In this document: positions 1-6,097 of the stretch, piece after piece
How positions within the stretch are numbered: the stretch's first letter is position 1
Layout: every line of letters starts with the position of its first letter
Virus record (IMG/VR): IMGVR_UViG_2778261346_000008
Coordinates: 1-11,570 of that record
Length of the DNA stretch: 11,570 nucleotides
From: a virus
Taxonomy: Duplodnaviria > Heunggongvirae > Uroviricota > Caudoviricetes
Direction: 5' to 3' (one strand)
Translations under genes and position numbers: made by a program
The notes under the pieces: generated by a model
Databases searched by the model: none
Seen by the model: only the letters and a program-made list of their open reading frames with translations
Told to the model about the DNA's origin: nothing

Positions 1-105
1 GACGAAAATTTAACGACAGGCTATCTATGAACCAGCTACCTCGCCGTGCGCTTTCGCGTTATGGTCTGACTTTTCAGGGAAATATCCTTTCAGTAAACTG
101 TCAGT

Positions 106-155
106 GCCGGATGCTCACCCGTGTCCGGCGCAAGCACTCCACCTCACCCGTGGAG
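106..155 (-). other. two adjacent stem-loops sharing the loop 10-mer CTCACCCGTG (plus-strand spelling)
   Basis: GCCGGA(106-111)/TCCGGC(124-129) and CTCCAC(137-142)/GTGGAG(150-155) are perfect 6-bp inverted repeats; CTCACCCGTG occurs at 114-123 and 144-153. Lies 3' of the leftward small-gene cluster. Confidence 0.4.
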
Positions 156-194
156 AACTCCTTAATTACCAACCTTAGCTTCGTTGGTTAGCTA

Positions 195-413
195 TTAACG
201 CGGGTATGTAATCATTCTGGCAATGGTTAATGCCGCTGCTTTTTCCAGATTGGTGATATCCTGCTCCAGAGAGGACAGATTTTCAGCCTGCTTAGCCCTG
301 ACTTCATTAGCCCATTTCAGATCCTGCGCTGCATTAATTTTCTGGTGCATCCACTCATAAAGTTCATCATTGGTATAGTCTGGCGCGATGATGACGGGTT
401 CTCGTTTCTGCAT
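195..413 (-). CDS. hypothetical small prophage protein (72 aa)
   Basis: ATG at 413..411 with GAGGAA about 6 nt upstream on minus strand; TAA at 197..195; co-oriented and tightly spaced with the two small genes upstream. No family recognised. Confidence 0.55.
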   Translation of the reverse strand: MQKREPVIIAPDYTNDELYEWMHQKINAAQDLKWANEVRAKQAENLSSLEQDITNLEKAAALTIARMITYPR

Positions 414-442
414 ACTGATTCCTCGCGGTGCTGTTTCGCTTA

Positions 443-571
443 TCAGCCATTAGATTTTGCCGAACTGGAAAGCACCTGTTTAAATTCGTTGAAGCTGTGA
501 GCTTCTTCGCCTTCGGCAAGGCCTTCGAAGTATTCTTCGTAAGCCTTTTCCATGATTGTGTCGAAATCCAT
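443..571 (-). CDS. hypothetical small acidic protein (42 aa, MDFDTIMEKAYEEYFEG...), possibly YdaG-like by position
   Basis: Not in the ORF track (<60 aa). ATG at 571..569 preceded by AGGTGG; stop TGA at 445..443; start lies 1 nt after the stop of the upstream gene (TGATATG on minus strand). Confidence 0.45.
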   Translation of the reverse strand: MDFDTIMEKAYEEYFEGLAEGEEAHSFNEFKQVLSSSAKSNG

Positions 572-572
572 A

Positions 573-728
573 TCACCCACCTGAATTTCTTTCCAGCCAG
601 CGACGCGCTCCAGATTCGGTTTTAAACGTTTTGCTTTTGGTATACGTCATTGCGGTGAACGTACCGTCCTGGTTGGGGAACACGCCACATACCAGAGATT
701 CGCTGTTGCCAAGATCGATAGTATCCAT
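573..728 (-). CDS. hypothetical small protein (51 aa, MDTIDLGNSESLV...), possibly YdaF-like by position and size
   Basis: Internal ATG at 728..726 of the 78-aa track ORF has a GAGG Shine-Dalgarno about 5 nt upstream; the track start at 809 lacks a comparable RBS; stop TGA 575..573. Confidence 0.45.
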   Translation of the reverse strand: MDTIDLGNSESLVCGVFPNQDGTFTAMTYTKSKTFKTESGARRWLERNSGG

Positions 729-909
729 GCTGACCTCATTTCCCCTTAACGCCGGGGTAGCGGAACAAAAACCTGCTGCATAGTTATTAAAGTTGAACCC
801 TGCCGTCATGTTCTTACGCCTCGGGCTGGCTACTTAACCCCTGACCACTGCCTGGTAACTCGAGGTATTGCCCTGTATTGTGTGGGACGGGATGGGTTGG
901 TATGGGAAA

Positions 910-938
910 ACTATAGGAAATGCCTAATTACTTGTCAA
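910..938 (-). promoter_or_regulatory. PL-like leftward early promoter with operator
   Basis: On minus strand: TTGACA (938..933), 17-nt spacer, TATAGT (915..910). Embedded in a 21-bp element (932-952) that is the exact reverse complement of 1577-1597 on the other side of the repressor gene. Confidence 0.6.
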
Positions 939-1046
939 TAGGCTATGCCTAATAATTTGGGCGCAACCTAATAGGTGATGGTTTGTGGAAGAGGTAGTAG
1001 GAGTTAACTAACGGGAACTAGGAATTTCCCGTCGGACCATATAAGT

Positions 1047-1523
1047 TTAAGTTCCTGTCTTGGTGATGTTCTGGCTTTTCCGTTTTGATTCTTGATTTTT
1101 CAGATAGTTAGCTACCTTCATTTCCATTGCGGCAATGTAGGCGCGAACGTCATGATCAACCCAACTAGGCTCCGTAGCATTTCCAGATAAGATGAAAGCC
1201 ACAATTGCTCTTTTTTCATCAGAGGCGGCTTGATAAAGGCTGTTTATGTCTAAAAGTTCACTTTTTGTATCTGAAGTGGATGGGGTTGGTATGGGGTATT
1301 CGTTAAGCCCCCAATGCTCTGGACCAACCACATCAGAAAAGAAACGCCATAGTTCTGGAAGTTTGTCTTTACTTATCGAACCTTTCTTAATCCAGTCATG
1401 GATTGATGGTGGTTGGACTTTGAAATGACGTGCGATTTCCGCCTTTGATTTGACGGCTCCTGATGCAATTTTTTTGTTAATGGCCTGCTCTATCGCTCGG
1501 CCTAAGTCTTTACCACTAAGCAT
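1047..1523 (-). CDS. racR: cI-like prophage repressor, RacR-like (158 aa)
   Basis: ATG 1523..1521 with AGGAGA upstream; HTH-like segment AEIARHFKVQPPSIHDWIKKG near N-terminus; divergent from a Cro-like gene; flanked by inverted operator modules. Identity to Rac RacR is from memory of the sequence and the ydaS/ydaT synteny. Confidence 0.7.
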   Translation of the reverse strand: MLSGKDLGRAIEQAINKKIASGAVKSKAEIARHFKVQPPSIHDWIKKGSISKDKLPELWRFFSDVVGPEHWGLNEYPIPTPSTSDTKSELLDINSLYQAASDEKRAIVAFILSGNATEPSWVDHDVRAYIAAMEMKVANYLKNQESKRKSQNITKTGT

Positions 1524-1576
1524 TGCTTAATAGTCTCCTATGCGTATCGCGTTAGGCAATCCCTACTCTCGATGTG

Positions 1577-1620
1577 TTAGGCATAGCCTATTGACAATTT
1601 CATTAGGCTAAGCCTAATAT
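1577..1620 (+). promoter_or_regulatory. PR-like rightward early promoter with operators
   Basis: TTGACA 1591-1596, 18-nt spacer, TAATAT 1615-1620; TTAGGC half-sites at 1552-1557, 1577-1582, 1603-1608 and palindrome TTAGGCTAAGCCTAA at 1603-1617. Confidence 0.6.
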
Positions 1621-1648
1621 TGTTGCGTGTTTTTTTGGAGTTCATTCG

Positions 1649-1972
1649 ATGAAAAAAGATAACTATTCATTCAAACGAGCTTGTGCTGTTGTCGGTGGGC
1701 AATCAGCAATGGCTAGGCTTTTAGGTGTATCTCCTCCAAGCGTAAATCAATGGATCAAAGGTGTACGTCAGTTACCTGCTGAGAGATGTCCTGCGATTGA
1801 ACGAGCAACAAAAGGTGGTGTCCTGTGTGAAGAACTTCGTCCTGATGTTGATTGGACATACTTACGACGCTCGTCATGTTATTCGCAGAATATGTCGATG
1901 AAGCAACCAAATGACGAAAACGATCATACCCGAAGCATCAAGAGGCAAATGATTCATGAAAATCAAACATGA
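1649..1972 (+). CDS. ydaS: Cro/YdaS-like HTH regulator (107 aa)
   Basis: ATG 1649 with GGAG 9 nt upstream; HTH-like segment QSAMARLLGVSPPSVNQWIKG; divergent from the repressor; 3' end overlaps next gene start. Confidence 0.65.
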   Translation: MKKDNYSFKRACAVVGGQSAMARLLGVSPPSVNQWIKGVRQLPAERCPAIERATKGGVLCEELRPDVDWTYLRRSSCYSQNMSMKQPNDENDHTRSIKRQMIHENQT

Positions 1973-2381
1973 GCACATCCGCATGGCGATGAATGCCTGG
2001 GCATACCCTGATGGTGAGAAAGTTCCTGCAGCTGAAATAGCCCGGACTTATTTCGAACTGGGGATGACGTTCCCTGAACTGTACGACGACAGCCATCCGG
2101 AAGCCCTGGCCCGTAATACCCAGAAAATTTTCCGTTGGCTGGATAAAGACACCCCTGATGCTGTTGAAAAAATGCAGGCTCTGTTACCGGCGATCGAAAA
2201 GGCGATGCCGCCTTTGCTGGTGGCCCGTATGCGCAGCCACAGTTCTGAATATTACCGTGAGATCGTCGAACGGAGGGATCGGCTGGTGAAGGATGTCGAT
2301 GATTTTGTTGCGTCAGCGGTTGTTTTGTATGACCAGATGAATCGCGGCGGCCCGGCAGGGAATGCTGTGGTGATGCACTAA
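1956..2381 (+). CDS. ydaT: YdaT-like prophage early protein (141 aa)
   Basis: ATG 1956 overlapping the ydaS 3' end; size and position match the Rac ydaS-ydaT pair. Assignment by synteny and recollection. Confidence 0.6.
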   Translation: MKIKHEHIRMAMNAWAYPDGEKVPAAEIARTYFELGMTFPELYDDSHPEALARNTQKIFRWLDKDTPDAVEKMQALLPAIEKAMPPLLVARMRSHSSEYYREIVERRDRLVKDVDDFVASAVVLYDQMNRGGPAGNAVVMH

Positions 2382-2403
2382 AAGCACGGTGTTCGGGGGT
2401 TTT

Positions 2404-3366
2404 ATGAGCAGCAAGCTTCATGGTCTTGTCTGGGAAGGGTGCGCCTTCACCGGCATGATCTTATCCAGGGTGGCGGTTATGGCCCGTCTTGCAGACTACA
2501 GCAATGACGAGGGCGTGTCATGGCCTGCCATTGAAACTATCCGGCGTCAGATCGGTGCAAGAAGTGAATCCACAGTGAAATCGGCTATTGCAGAACTGGC
2601 GAAAGAGGGCTGGCTGACGAAGGAAGAGCGTAAGGTCGGTGGGCGTAATGTAAGCAATATCTATCGGCTTAATGTGGAAAAACTCGAAGCAGCTGCGGCG
2701 GCGGCGCGTGAGTCATATAAACCGAAAAGAAAAATTAGCCCGGCAAAAAATGACCCGTTAACAGTTGACCCGTCAAATATTGACCCCTCAACGGTTGACC
2801 CGTCAAATTTTGATGGATCAACTGTTGATAAAAAACTGCCGATTAGGGGGCCGATGATTGACCCCGATCCGTCAGTATTAAAACCTGATCCGTCAGATAA
2901 AAGATCTTCTTGTCCGGACGCTTCGCAACCGGACCCGCAGACGGCTGAACAGGATTTTTTAACCCGACACCCTGACGCGGTTGTGTTCAGTGCGAAAAAA
3001 CGCCAGTGGGGAAGTCAGGAAGATTTGGTGTGCGCACAGTGGATCTGGGGACGAATCGTGAGTCTTTACGAGCAGGCGGCCAGCTATGATGGCGAGATCA
3101 CTAGACCGAAAGAACCCAACTGGACAGCATGGGCCAATGACGTTCGCACAATGCGGATGCTGGATGGCAGAACTCACAGACAAATTTGTGAAATGTTTGG
3201 GCGTCTCCAGCGGGATTCGTTCTGGGTAAAAAACATCATGAGTCCGGCAAAACTCCGGGAAAAATGGGATGAACTGGTTATCCGCCTGGGGCGTATGCCT
3301 GCGCAGCGTTGCGTGAATCACATTTCTGAACCGGACACTGAAATTCCGCCGGGCTTCAGGGGGTAA
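2404..3366 (+). CDS. phage replication initiator / replisome organiser (320 aa from ATG 2404)
   Basis: Track ORF starts at GTG 2389; ATG 2404 follows a G-rich RBS. N-terminal winged-HTH-like segment (GVSWPAIETIRRQIGARSESTVKSAIAELAKEGWL), Asp/Pro-rich linker encoded by tandem 15-bp repeats, Trp-rich C-terminal domain. Confidence 0.6.
   Translation: MSSKLHGLVWEGCAFTGMILSRVAVMARLADYSNDEGVSWPAIETIRRQIGARSESTVKSAIAELAKEGWLTKEERKVGGRNVSNIYRLNVEKLEAAAAAARESYKPKRKISPAKNDPLTVDPSNIDPSTVDPSNFDGSTVDKKLPIRGPMIDPDPSVLKPDPSDKRSSCPDASQPDPQTAEQDFLTRHPDAVVFSAKKRQWGSQEDLVCAQWIWGRIVSLYEQAASYDGEITRPKEPNWTAWANDVRTMRMLDGRTHRQICEMFGRLQRDSFWVKNIMSPAKLREKWDELVIRLGRMPAQRCVNHISEPDTEIPPGFRG
2751..2840. repeat. six tandem 15-bp iterons (TGACCCGTCAA-like, each with TTGAC/GTCAA dyad) followed by an A-rich tract; candidate ori
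   Basis: Units begin at 2751, 2766, 2781, 2796, 2811, 2826; related half-repeats TGA(C/T)CCG(A)TCAG at 2858-2875 and 2885-2896. Located inside the initiator gene, as lambda ori lies inside O. Confidence 0.6.
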
Positions 3367-3406
3367 GTGTTAATTTCTGGTCATGAGGTAATTTTCAGGA
3401 GGGCTT

Positions 3407-3829
3407 GTGGCAAAAGTTTTTACACAAGAAGAGCGGGAAAAAATTAAAGGGCAGGTTGTTGAACTCGTACGCCAGAGTGGGCGCGAGACGTTACGACAAC
3501 TGGAAACTAAAACTGGGGCAACAAGATATCTGATGAGCGTTCTGGCCAGAGAGCTGGTTGCCAGTGGCGATGTATACAACTCTGGTTACGGGTTATTCCC
3601 GTCTGAACAGGCGCGTAAGGACTGGCAAAATGCCCGTAAAAAGCTCTCAAGGGCAAAGCCGAAGAAACCATCTGCGGTTGATCCGGACCTTATCTGGTCA
3701 TTACCAGATGGCGAAATACGCCGCTACGACAGGCGTCTGAACATAATCTGTCTCGAGTGCCGGAAGAGCGAAGTTATGCAGCGCGTACTGGCGTTTTATC
3801 AGGGGAATTTTGAGGAGGTGGTGCGGTGA
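3407..3829 (+). CDS. hypothetical early protein (140 aa)
   Basis: GTG start at 3407 with CAGGAGGG upstream; stop TGA overlaps the next start (GTGA at 3826-3829). Confidence 0.5.
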   Translation: MAKVFTQEEREKIKGQVVELVRQSGRETLRQLETKTGATRYLMSVLARELVASGDVYNSGYGLFPSEQARKDWQNARKKLSRAKPKKPSAVDPDLIWSLPDGEIRRYDRRLNIICLECRKSEVMQRVLAFYQGNFEEVVR

Positions 3830-4080
3830 GTGAATCAAAATGCCAGGTTAATGGCAACAAGATAGAACCATGTGCAGCACTGGCAAAGTCCCTTGAGCAT
3901 GATGCTGAATACACGATGCGAAAAGGTCTGCTGATATACAAAATCTGGAATGAGAGTTTAACTCGCGGTCCTGATTTTGTGATGTTGCGTTCCGGTGAAT
4001 TTTCTAAATTACCAGTTCGGGTTTCATTTTGTCCGTTCTGTGGTGAAAGTCTGAAAACGTGGGAGAACAGAAATGAATGA
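3826..4080 (+). CDS. hypothetical Cys-containing small protein (84 aa; CPFCG motif near C-terminus)
   Basis: GTG 3826 with GAGGAGG upstream; translationally coupled to both neighbours. Confidence 0.5.
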   Translation: MSESKCQVNGNKIEPCAALAKSLEHDAEYTMRKGLLIYKIWNESLTRGPDFVMLRSGEFSKLPVRVSFCPFCGESLKTWENRNE

Positions 4081-4384
4081 AATCAAAGAAATACCAGTAG
4101 TACGTGATGAATATGGCTGCTGGACGCATCCTGAATATGAAAAATTCTGTGACGGTCGGGAATATATTTCAACGGAAGAGTTTAACGCCTGGATGGAGGA
4201 AAATAATCTTCAATACGTCCTCTGCTTCAGAGATGAAGGATGTGCTGACCTTGATGCGTGTGATGCTGATATTTCTGCATGGGAACCGGAACGACCAGAG
4301 GGCAATGGATGGTTTATTGGTTCAATACATGACACCGAAGATGGCCCGGTTTGTGTATGGCTGAGAAATAAGGCCGAAGCATAA
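4073..4384 (+). CDS. hypothetical acidic Cys/Trp-rich protein (103 aa)
   Basis: ATG 4073 with GGAGAA upstream, overlapping the stop of the previous gene; last gene before the base-composition drop. Confidence 0.5.
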   Translation: MNEIKEIPVVRDEYGCWTHPEYEKFCDGREYISTEEFNAWMEENNLQYVLCFRDEGCADLDACDADISAWEPERPEGNGWFIGSIHDTEDGPVCVWLRNKAEA

Positions 4385-4488
4385 AGGCTATAAACCGACT
4401 AACAACTAAATACTGAAGATTTAAATCAGAAACGATTTTTATTAAATCCTTAACCGGAGGGATTCCTGCACCCTCAAATCATCAGGAG

Positions 4489-4506
4489 GCCGCCCGAAAG
4501 GGCGGT
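4489..4506 (+). other. GC stem-loop with GAAA tetraloop abutting the RBS of the next gene
   Basis: GCCGCCC (4489-4495) GAAA (4496-4499) GGGCGGT (4500-4506): 7-bp stem with one G-U; no U-tract follows; 3' arm overlaps GGTGGAG and sits 10 nt before ATG 4517. Confidence 0.45.
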
Positions 4507-4516
4507 GGAGATAATA

Positions 4517-5038
4517 ATGGGAATAACTAAAGAACGATTGTTGGAAATAGCAAACCTTAGTGATTGGGCATTAAGTGATGAGAGAATTGTTTCTCCTCAT
4601 GCTTATGAGTCAGTTACAAGTATAGAAATAACAACAATGGCTAGAATGCTGCTTGGTTATTTCAAAATAGAAAATAAAAAACAGATGGATAGTAATGTTG
4701 ATATATGTGAGATTTTAGACGATTGGGGGGCTTGGGTTGTGGCTGGTAATAGTTCTATTGATTGGCAGGAAATAGCTGATAAATATAAAAATGTTGTTCC
4801 TCATGGTAAAAAATCACGTCGTCAGTGCAGCAATGATGAAGGGCGAATTATTGACATTAGTATCCTTATGTTAGAAAGATATAAGCAACAAGAATATGAG
4901 TTAATTGTTGCTCATTTCGTGATTGGTTTATCTCTTCGTGCTATTGCAAAGCAACAAGGATGTTCAGATGGAACAATTCGTAAAAGATTGCAAAAAGCCT
5001 TAGGTTTTTTGACTGGATATATAGCAATTACCAGTTAA
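4517..5038 (+). CDS. sigma-70 region-4-like HTH protein, putative transcriptional regulator (173 aa from ATG 4517)
   Basis: Track ORF starts at GTG 4505; ATG 4517 has GGTGGAG about 6 nt upstream. C-terminus ELIVAHFVIGLSLRAIAKQQGCSDGTIRKRLQKALGFL resembles ECF-sigma/LuxR region-4 HTH; AT-rich codon usage matches the island. Confidence 0.6.
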   Translation: MGITKERLLEIANLSDWALSDERIVSPHAYESVTSIEITTMARMLLGYFKIENKKQMDSNVDICEILDDWGAWVVAGNSSIDWQEIADKYKNVVPHGKKSRRQCSNDEGRIIDISILMLERYKQQEYELIVAHFVIGLSLRAIAKQQGCSDGTIRKRLQKALGFLTGYIAITS

Positions 5039-5676
5039 GAGTCAGCGGTTTTTTTACCAGTGTAATGGTATAAGGATACTCCCATGTGTCTTACATGATA
5101 TGGAAGCGCTGTTGCTGGATGCTTTGTGATACTCTTAAAGCGGAGGGGAGAGCCTTCCGCTTCAATTTCTGCGTCCGAAACGGTCGTAGAGAAAAATTCT
5201 TTCCATTCATTGAATTTTACTGCTGATTTGTCAGACTTTATATAAATTAGAATTCCTCCATGATCGTCACGTGACGTACCCGTGCCGTAACGTTCGGTTA
5301 GCTGAATCCAGCCATTATGAATAGATTTGGGGCCTCTCCATAATTTTGCTTCACCGATCCATTCGAATTTTCCGAATTGATGTTTAACTAATAAATCAAC
5401 GTGACCGCCATGTTGAGTATCATGTTCAACATCATAAAACCTACCTTTCAGGAAATTTTTGATCGACGCTGTTAGCTCGTCCTCTCCCCACTTAGCATCT
5501 TGATAGAAGTGTTTGTCATTTTCTAAATTCTGAATAGCGTCGTCTAAATCTTCATAGAGTTGCTTTACAAAAATATTTTTGTCTGCAGCTAATTTTCTTT
5601 GAACCATTCCCCTAAATTCAGGATCCATTCTAATTAATGATTGAAGGTCTGCAGTACAGATGTTTACATCACTCAT
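5035..5676 (-). CDS. PD-(D/E)xK nuclease-like protein (213 aa), third gene of island operon
   Basis: ATG at 5676..5674 with GGAGAG 5 nt upstream, overlapping the stop of the upstream gene by 8 bp (ATGAGTGA). Motif E84, hVD94LLV, 14 residues, EWIGE109AK111. Track start at 5739 has no RBS. Confidence 0.55.
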   Translation of the reverse strand: MSDVNICTADLQSLIRMDPEFRGMVQRKLAADKNIFVKQLYEDLDDAIQNLENDKHFYQDAKWGEDELTASIKNFLKGRFYDVEHDTQHGGHVDLLVKHQFGKFEWIGEAKLWRGPKSIHNGWIQLTERYGTGTSRDDHGGILIYIKSDKSAVKFNEWKEFFSTTVSDAEIEAEGSPLRFKSITKHPATALPYHVRHMGVSLYHYTGKKTADS

Positions 5677-6097
5677 GCAGACTCTCCAAAAGACTCGAAG
5701 GAGTAAAGTATGGATAAAGATACTGGCTAAAATTATCAACCAATTCGCCAGTTTCTGGATGGTAAAAACTTCCTGTGTCTAAAGCATAGGAAATAAGATC
5801 ATCTTCAACTGGTATTGGTTCTTCCGTTAAATTATCAATGTATTGAAAATGCATATCCAATAGATGTGCTTTATAGCTAGATAAATAATCAGTTGCTTTT
5901 ATTAGCAGGATATAGTCATCTTTCGTATCAGTTAGATAGGTTAAACCATTGATAAGGGTTTTGTATGTAAAGTGATTGATATTTTTAGCATCTTTACTAA
6001 CCAGAAAAAGAAAAAGATCACGACACACACTGCGAACAGGATCATTAAAATCCTGCTCTATTTGCGTGATAATGTCGTGATATATACTCTTTTTCAT
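5669..6097 (-). CDS. hypothetical acidic protein (142 aa), middle gene of island operon
   Basis: ATG 6097..6095 overlaps the stop of the upstream gene (ATGA); weak own RBS, consistent with translational coupling; no recognisable motif. Confidence 0.6.
   Translation of the reverse strand: MKKSIYHDIITQIEQDFNDPVRSVCRDLFLFLVSKDAKNINHFTYKTLINGLTYLTDTKDDYILLIKATDYLSSYKAHLLDMHFQYIDNLTEEPIPVEDDLISYALDTGSFYHPETGELVDNFSQYLYPYFTPSSLLESLHE

Follow-up and report, generated by a model that had tools for sequence, protein, structure and literature searches.

A three-gene operon with a predicted PD-(D/E)xK nuclease in a Rac-like prophage of Escherichia coli is a diverged member of the DS-21 anti-phage defense family

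The stretch of DNA analyzed here, hereafter the window, comprises 11,570 nucleotides of a Rac-like lambdoid prophage of Escherichia coli (IMG/VR virus record IMGVR_UViG_2778261346_000008, positions 1 to 11,570). It carries a compact operon of three genes on the minus strand, referred to as A, B and C, whose start and stop codons overlap at both the A/B and the B/C junctions, and which is flanked by a Q-type antiterminator gene and a hok/sok-type toxin-antitoxin module (Table 1). Gene A is listed from its GTG codon, and a start at ATG 7185, giving a protein of 363 amino acids, is more likely. Gene C is the last gene of the three, in agreement with an original prediction that had described a PD-(D/E)xK-like catalytic motif in the terminal operon gene, and it is the principal subject of this analysis. 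Our central finding is that this locus, rather than being a system of a new kind, adds a new and diverged member to the validated DS-21 defense family.

Table 1. Coordinates of the operon, of conserved positions in gene C and of neighboring features in the window
Feature	Position	Strand	Remarks
Gene A, predicted sensor	6094..7191	-	365 amino acids from GTG 7191; pI 8.8
Gene B	5669..6097	-	142 amino acids; acidic, pI 4.6; phrog_11490, E 8e-61
Gene C, PD-(D/E)xK nuclease, predicted effector	5035..5676	-	Basis: fold, conservation, DS-21 homology
Catalytic core of gene C	5287..5484	-	Invariant E65, G91, D94, E109, K111, Q125, Y130
E65 codon	5484-5482	-	Invariant
E84 codon	5427-5425	-	Non-conserved; inside the catalytic-core span
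D94 codon	5397-5395	-	Invariant
E109 codon	5352-5350	-	Invariant
K111 codon	5346-5344	-	Invariant
Q125 codon	5304-5302	-	Invariant
Y130 codon	5289-5287	-	Invariant
Intergenic region, presumed operon promoter	7192..7361	-	Between gene A and the sok/hok module; promoter inferred
PF06530 Q-type antiterminator gene	4505..5038	+	Left border of slot; convergent with gene C; in low-GC stretch
hok/sok-type type I toxin-antitoxin module	7362..7687	+	Complete; right border of slot; adjoins start of defense operon; sok 7362-7537 (Rfam, 113.7 bits)
mok/hok open reading frame	7475-7687	+	70-amino-acid mok frame containing hok
DUF968 protein	8135-9184		Weak match to an HNH-nuclease model
RusA gene	9197-9571		
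STnc100 small RNA family	11158-11344	+	115 bits, full length; downstream of second Q gene

Translated from ATG 5676, gene C encodes a protein of 213 amino acids. This start, which had been assumed in the original prediction, is borne out by an 8-nucleotide overlap with the stop of the upstream gene and by the alignments, in that 33 homologues and the phrog_9664 profile all align from residue 1. The RefSeq annotation of the gene in E. coli E2348/69 is shorter, beginning at the internal M17 and comprising 197 amino acids (NC_011601.1 1437328-1437921; positions 6001-6594 of locus L001), and the longer form is favored because of the family alignments and the overlapping upstream stop. In this frame the proposed motif falls exactly where it had been placed, with VEHD at residues 83-86 (E84), HVDLLV at 92-97 (D94) and EWIGEAK at 105-111 (E109, A110, K111), and with 14 residues between D94 and E109.

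Taken alone, such a motif is within the reach of chance, as a loose version of the pattern was present in 35%, and a stricter version in 13%, of 20,000 shuffles of the gene C protein. It is conservation that lifts the motif above this background. None of 34 homologues, with identity down to 27%, deviates at D94, E109 or K111, and in an alignment of the window protein with 150 cluster representatives at <=50% identity, E65, G91, D94, E109, K111, Q125 and Y130 are invariant in all 151 sequences, while D66, H85, H92, W106, A110 and R129 are nearly so. The family as a whole numbers 992 clusters (again at <=50% identity) at E<=1e-3. The same alignment does not sustain the proposal of E84 as a catalytic acid, as this position is glutamate in 23 of the 151 sequences (15%) and more commonly serine (45) or threonine (37). 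E84 was, therefore, rejected as a catalytic residue on conservation; judged from the alignment, it is E65 that provides the conserved acidic residue upstream.

The AlphaFold2 model of gene C, built from a 34-sequence alignment, is confident (predicted local distance difference test score 92.1, predicted template modeling score 0.88) and divides into a helical N-terminal region (residues 8-58) and a nuclease core (residues 65-201). The core elements run in the order helix 65-78, strands 82-88, 92-98 and 105-112, helix 116-130 and strand 139-146, so that the restriction-endonuclease fold anticipated from the motif is recovered in the predicted structure as an alpha-beta-beta-beta-alpha-beta core. 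In the model, the second core strand opens around D94, which precedes strand residues 95-98, and the third carries E109 and K111; from the register of the hairpin D94 should face E109. The candidates for completing this predicted metal site are E65 or the H85/D86/H92 cluster.

The closest structural matches of the gene C model are the restriction endonucleases OkrAI (3odh), BamHI (1bam), BstYI (1sdo) and BglII (1d2i), and further neighbors include CdiA-CT toxins and CARF-linked nucleases, as well as HamA, LmuA (PDDEXK type), McrC, NucC and SduA. By sequence, neither phmmer nor a profile search returned a nuclease match to gene C among PDB chains. The gene C profile picked up only marginal matches to Rab GTPases in the PDB (E 0.006, C-terminal half); these are at odds with both the fold and the motifs and were dismissed as chance. 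Comparison of the gene C family with BamHI by hhalign gave a probability of 0.2% (the BamHI sequence having been verified against 1bam). By eye, GGHVDL and GEAK of gene C look similar to two strings from the active site of BamHI, GGPIDV and GMEFE; because hhalign detects no sequence relationship, this local GGxhDh / GExK likeness is a by-eye observation only. Among phage protein families, gene C matches phrog_9664 (E 6e-94), and the PHROGs matches of all three genes are to families of "unknown function". Nothing meaningful was returned for genes A, B or C in Pfam or NCBIfam scans, and PADLOC yielded a single weak domain match, to the candidate PDC-S54.

The relationship to DS-21 connects the operon to a system with demonstrated activity. 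DS-21 (working name TOXO) is a trio encoded on one strand in an E. coli ECOR strain (NZ_QOXJ01000032.1 7805-9963) and reported in the supplementary tables of the DefensePredictor study (DeWeirdt et al., Science 2026; PMC13092281). The window proteins are similar to those of DS-21 over their full lengths, with 51% identity for gene A (E 3e-141), 54% for gene B (WP_021552536.1; E 2e-48) and 60% for gene C (WP_001557682.1; E 6e-93). DS-21 was cloned alone and scored defensive=TRUE, with log10 protection of 4.48 against Bas1 and 2.0 against Bas11, and weak or plaque-size effects on Bas3, Bas9, Bas67 and T3 (PMC13092281). Its C protein has a remote HHblits match to the LmuA PD-(D/E)xK effector (probability 94.7, 54% coverage; PMC13092281). 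DS-21 is absent from the main-text discussion of that paper, and the supplement entries looked up describe no DS-21 mutants, mechanism or partner analysis (PMC13092281). A literature search found nothing under the RefSeq accessions, nor on RdgC together with anti-phage nucleases. Given the DS-21 relationship, the present find is correct but largely known; the new elements are a predicted RdgC/RexA-like fold of gene A, fusions of the nuclease to NACHT-HEAT proteins, and the hotspot context of the operon.

Trios of this type recur in several settings. They were found in Stx1a-converting phages between Q and stx1, in Moraxella phage Mcat13, in Photobacterium and metagenome contigs, and, in Klebsiella, within a P2-like element whose replication gene gpA and portal gene gpQ flank the trio, a slot that is a published P2 defense hotspot. 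Phage homologues were recovered by tblastn; a megablast of the operon against phage genomes returned the hok/mok flank only. The nuclease domain also occurs apart from the trio. For example, 8 of the 150 top family representatives (P0080, P0096, P0098, P0104, P0106, P0107, P0108 and P0199) carry it as the C-terminus of NACHT/NB-ARC STAND proteins with HEAT/TPR repeats, and one of these, P0080 (positions 5001-7931 of locus L011), is encoded by a stand-alone gene of a cyanobacterium, beside a DUF433/PIN pair. In addition, the C-terminal part of the PADLOC model PDC-S54 is matched by 26 of 34 gene C homologues (best E 7.5e-11), with residues 88-150 of the window protein matching model positions 295-353 of 410 (E 0.0016). 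Full membership of gene C in PDC-S54 was rejected, as only a domain is shared. On the strength of the NACHT/NB-ARC fusions and the PDC-S54 match, the gene C domain may be regarded as a portable immune effector.

Gene A, the largest of the three, is predicted to adopt a DNA-binding fold of the RdgC/RexA/IML3-CHL4 type. The RdgC family (Pfam PF04381) was unmatched by all 21 gene A homologues even at E<=1, gene A matches no PADLOC model by sequence, and a profile search gained just three more distant relatives. When the gene A and gene B profiles were compared with the PDB, nothing credible emerged. Residues 183-201 of gene A were considered as a membrane segment and rejected, as they form core beta-strands in the model. 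The sole low-confidence loop of the gene A model (residues 277-287, window 6250-6360) directly follows the invariant pair Y275-H276 and itself holds the invariant G279 and A282; a conserved and flexible loop of this sort might serve in contacts with DNA or with a partner.

Gene B, always found between A and C, is predicted to be an adaptor or inhibitor of the nuclease. A distant metagenome locus (L010, positions 3743-5014) offers a separate observation on this gene. There, a 423-amino-acid protein upstream of the nuclease contains a B-like domain at residues 302-416 (hhalign 95.6%), and its N-terminal 300 residues are not detectably A-like. From its sequence, this protein looks like a B-type adaptor fused to a different putative sensor, and the fusion argues, therefore, that B is physically tied to both its upstream partner and the nuclease.

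The prophage setting of the operon suggests that it is exchangeable cargo. The operon is 100% identical to its counterpart in O145 strain RM9154-C1 and 99.9% identical to that in enteropathogenic E. coli (EPEC) E2348/69, was found in 14 of 5,426 complete E. coli genomes, and has a GC content of 36.5% as compared with 48.3% for the remainder of the window. On its left, the stops of gene C and of the convergent Q-type gene overlap in TTAA 5035-5038, and no terminator was found between them. This Q-type gene is 61% identical to the Q gene of Stx1a-converting phages, which likewise converges on the homologous trio, and thus Q and the trio may travel together. On its right, the minus strand ahead of gene A yielded no convincing sigma-70 match. 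Other E. coli strains have a different two-gene cassette in this slot, again with Q and hok as neighbors (positions 5062-7525 of both L012 and L013; NZ_OW967178.1, NZ_CP071439.1), which encodes a 477-amino-acid hypothetical protein and the 352-amino-acid nucleoid-associated protein WP_001586997.1, the latter listed as a predicted defense gene with a log-odds of 8.4 (DefensePredictor, PMC13092281). The architecture of this alternative cassette resembles that of the validated DS-1, and because of this resemblance we regard the site flanked by the Q-type gene and hok as a defense hotspot of Rac-like prophages.

Several further features of the window deserve mention. The prophage has two unrelated Q-type genes, that of the PF06530 type beside the operon and one of the PF03589 type at 9568-10389 (+). 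No tRNA genes were found in the window, and E2348/69 has tRNA genes in the corresponding region. Genes with the Pfam labels "YdaS toxin" and "YdaT toxin" (1649-2381, +) occupy a cro/cII-like position in the immunity region; as the YdaS-like protein has matches to P22 Cro and HTH_3 as well, the genes so labeled are probably regulators and not toxins.

Taking these lines of evidence together, we think it probable that gene C encodes a metal-dependent nuclease that serves as the effector of a DS-21-family prophage defense trio, in which A would sense phage DNA and B would couple or restrain the nuclease. This reading draws on the predicted nuclease fold, the invariance of E65, D94, E109, K111, Q125 and Y130, the A-B-C operon, its position in a cargo slot, and its homology to a protective system. 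The suggestion that the motif suits a defense effector or toxin is likewise supported, as the homologous trio protects E. coli from phages and such trios lie in defense-cargo slots. Gene A would most likely detect phage DNA or an intermediate of replication or recombination; gene B, translationally coupled to both neighbors, would link A to C or hold C inactive; and infection would then release or activate C, which would cleave phage DNA or, in abortive infection, all DNA. Once the prophage is induced, early rightward transcription would traverse the entire operon in the antisense direction, a possible built-in off switch. Indeed, because the operon faces this transcription and there is no room for a terminator after C, it is tempting to speculate that induction could switch the operon off by transcriptional collision.

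A more specific version of the mechanism, "Rex with a nuclease", is one that we can offer only tentatively and consider rather doubtful as a whole. In it, an RdgC/RexA-like gene A product, shaped as a ring or horseshoe, would load on a phage-specific DNA structure, such as ends or replication or recombination intermediates, and would then license a BamHI-like nuclease by way of the small acidic B. Neither an NTPase nor a second messenger would be involved, and the nuclease would have been captured independently by NACHT-HEAT receptors. What RexA senses is a long-unresolved question. If correct, this mechanism would represent a new wiring of sensor to effector and provide a tractable, soluble parallel for what RexA senses.

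A number of points weigh against the proposed defense mechanism or parts of it. The global template modeling scores behind the RdgC-like assignment of gene A are low (0.30/0.35), and by sequence gene A matches neither RdgC nor RexA models. Gene B has no recognizable family and no detectable relatives in the searches made, and because of this lack of relatives its role is a guess. The catalytic role of E65 is uncertain in the model, because the residue sits at the N-terminal end of its helix. Furthermore, the operon contains no NTPase, methyltransferase or obvious signaling enzyme, the sparing of self DNA is unexplained, and the phage-protection data stem from a homologue with 51-60% identity and not from the window locus itself.

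Four other explanations were considered and ranked below the defense reading. The operon could be mainly a toxin-antitoxin or addiction module, with C as toxin, B as antitoxin and A as regulator, that stabilizes the prophage and senses no phage. A small acidic partner directly upstream is typical of many nuclease-immunity pairs, and gene B, small and acidic (pI 4.6), directly upstream of the nuclease and overlapping it by 8 nucleotides, fits that description; CdiA-CT toxins are among the structural neighbors of C, and the operon adjoins the hok/sok addiction module. We nevertheless regard this explanation as unlikely, given that the homologous trio protects about 10^4.5-fold and 10^2-fold against specific phages and that trios are located in defense-cargo slots, and that a 365-amino-acid partner with a predicted DNA-binding fold is conserved throughout, which would be superfluous for a simple two-part pair. 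Many abortive-infection systems are toxin-antitoxin-like, and the addiction and defense readings are, therefore, compatible and not exclusive. Similarly, gene C could be a ribonuclease that cleaves, for instance, tRNA or mRNA, stopping infection through a shutdown of translation. Some PD-(D/E)xK-fold proteins cleave RNA, so that precedents exist within the superfamily, and CdiA-CT toxins and CARF-linked nucleases with mixed substrates are among the structural matches; we judge this substrate to be improbable.

Proximity to recombination genes raises a different prospect, namely that an RdgC-like modulator and a structure-specific nuclease form an accessory to recombination or replication that serves the prophage's own life cycle. 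RdgC modulates RecA-dependent recombination, and the RusA gene and the DUF968 protein are encoded nearby. The operon, however, opposes the early operon and has a foreign GC content, it is found in just 14 of the 5,426 E. coli genomes, unrelated cargo replaces it in otherwise similar prophages, related trios occur in unrelated phage types and at non-phage chromosomal sites, and the homologue defends when cloned alone, all of which make a housekeeping role in the phage most improbable. The explanation to which we give the least credence, hardly any at all, is that gene C encodes an orphan type II restriction endonuclease of the BamHI kind or is what remains of a restriction-modification system. 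The top structural matches (OkrAI, BamHI, BstYI and BglII) and the likeness by eye of GGHVDL/GEAK to the BamHI active site would suit it. Against it, no methyltransferase domain was found in A, B, C, the other scanned window proteins or the related loci examined, gene C has no significant sequence similarity to BamHI or any PDB chain, and in every locus examined the conserved partners are A and B and not a methylase.

The preferred reading, that of a prophage-borne defense trio with a nuclease effector, has several implications. As a motif call, the case confirms that a genuine catalytic site can be recognized from raw sequence. With this locus, DS-21, a validated family with no published mechanism, gains a diverged member that is carried naturally by a prophage. 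The analysis singles out E65, D94, E109, K111, Q125 and Y130 as the positions for mutation, with E84 as a predicted neutral control, and the predicted RdgC/RexA fold of the largest subunit points to sensing of DNA structure. In Rac-like prophages, the stretch that separates the Q-type gene from hok is a site of exchange for defense cargo. The carriers of the operon include EPEC E2348/69 and strains of Shiga toxin-producing E. coli, and a related trio lies beside the toxin genes in Stx1a-converting phages; because of these carriers, perhaps the system may influence which phages superinfect pathogenic E. coli.

Among known systems, DS-21 has the same gene order, proteins of 365/140/211 amino acids as compared with 365/142/213 in the window, and a C protein with the same invariant residues, whereas the window operon is a diverged variant in another genomic setting, with a Q-type gene and hok/sok flanking it in a Rac-like prophage. 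BamHI-like type II enzymes share the fold predicted for gene C, which differs from them in lacking detectable sequence similarity and a methyltransferase partner, and in having an extra N-terminal helical region and the conserved partners A and B. With respect to RexAB, the effector here is a soluble nuclease accompanied by a small acidic protein, whereas RexB is a membrane protein; no RexB-type polytopic membrane partner was found in the trio, B and C lack hydrophobic segments (the highest Kyte-Doolittle mean over 19 residues is 0.57 and 0.16, respectively), and the sole hydrophobic stretch of A is a buried beta-strand in the model.

Comparison with other immune systems places gene C among effectors of a common type. 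Hachiman, Lamassu, McrC, NucC, Shedu and PDC-S54 use the same catalytic fold as the effector module of an immune system, but the window operon has no helicase (HamB), SMC protein (LmuB), GTPase (McrB) or cyclic-nucleotide sensor. In the PADLOC searches, the trio had no significant match to the Hachiman, Lamassu, McrC, NucC or Shedu models, and neither LmuA nor LmuB was matched by A, B or C. The antiviral STAND (NACHT) proteins carry the gene C domain as their C-terminal module. Unlike these proteins, the window system is devoid of any NTPase, and thus sensing must be performed by A and/or B.
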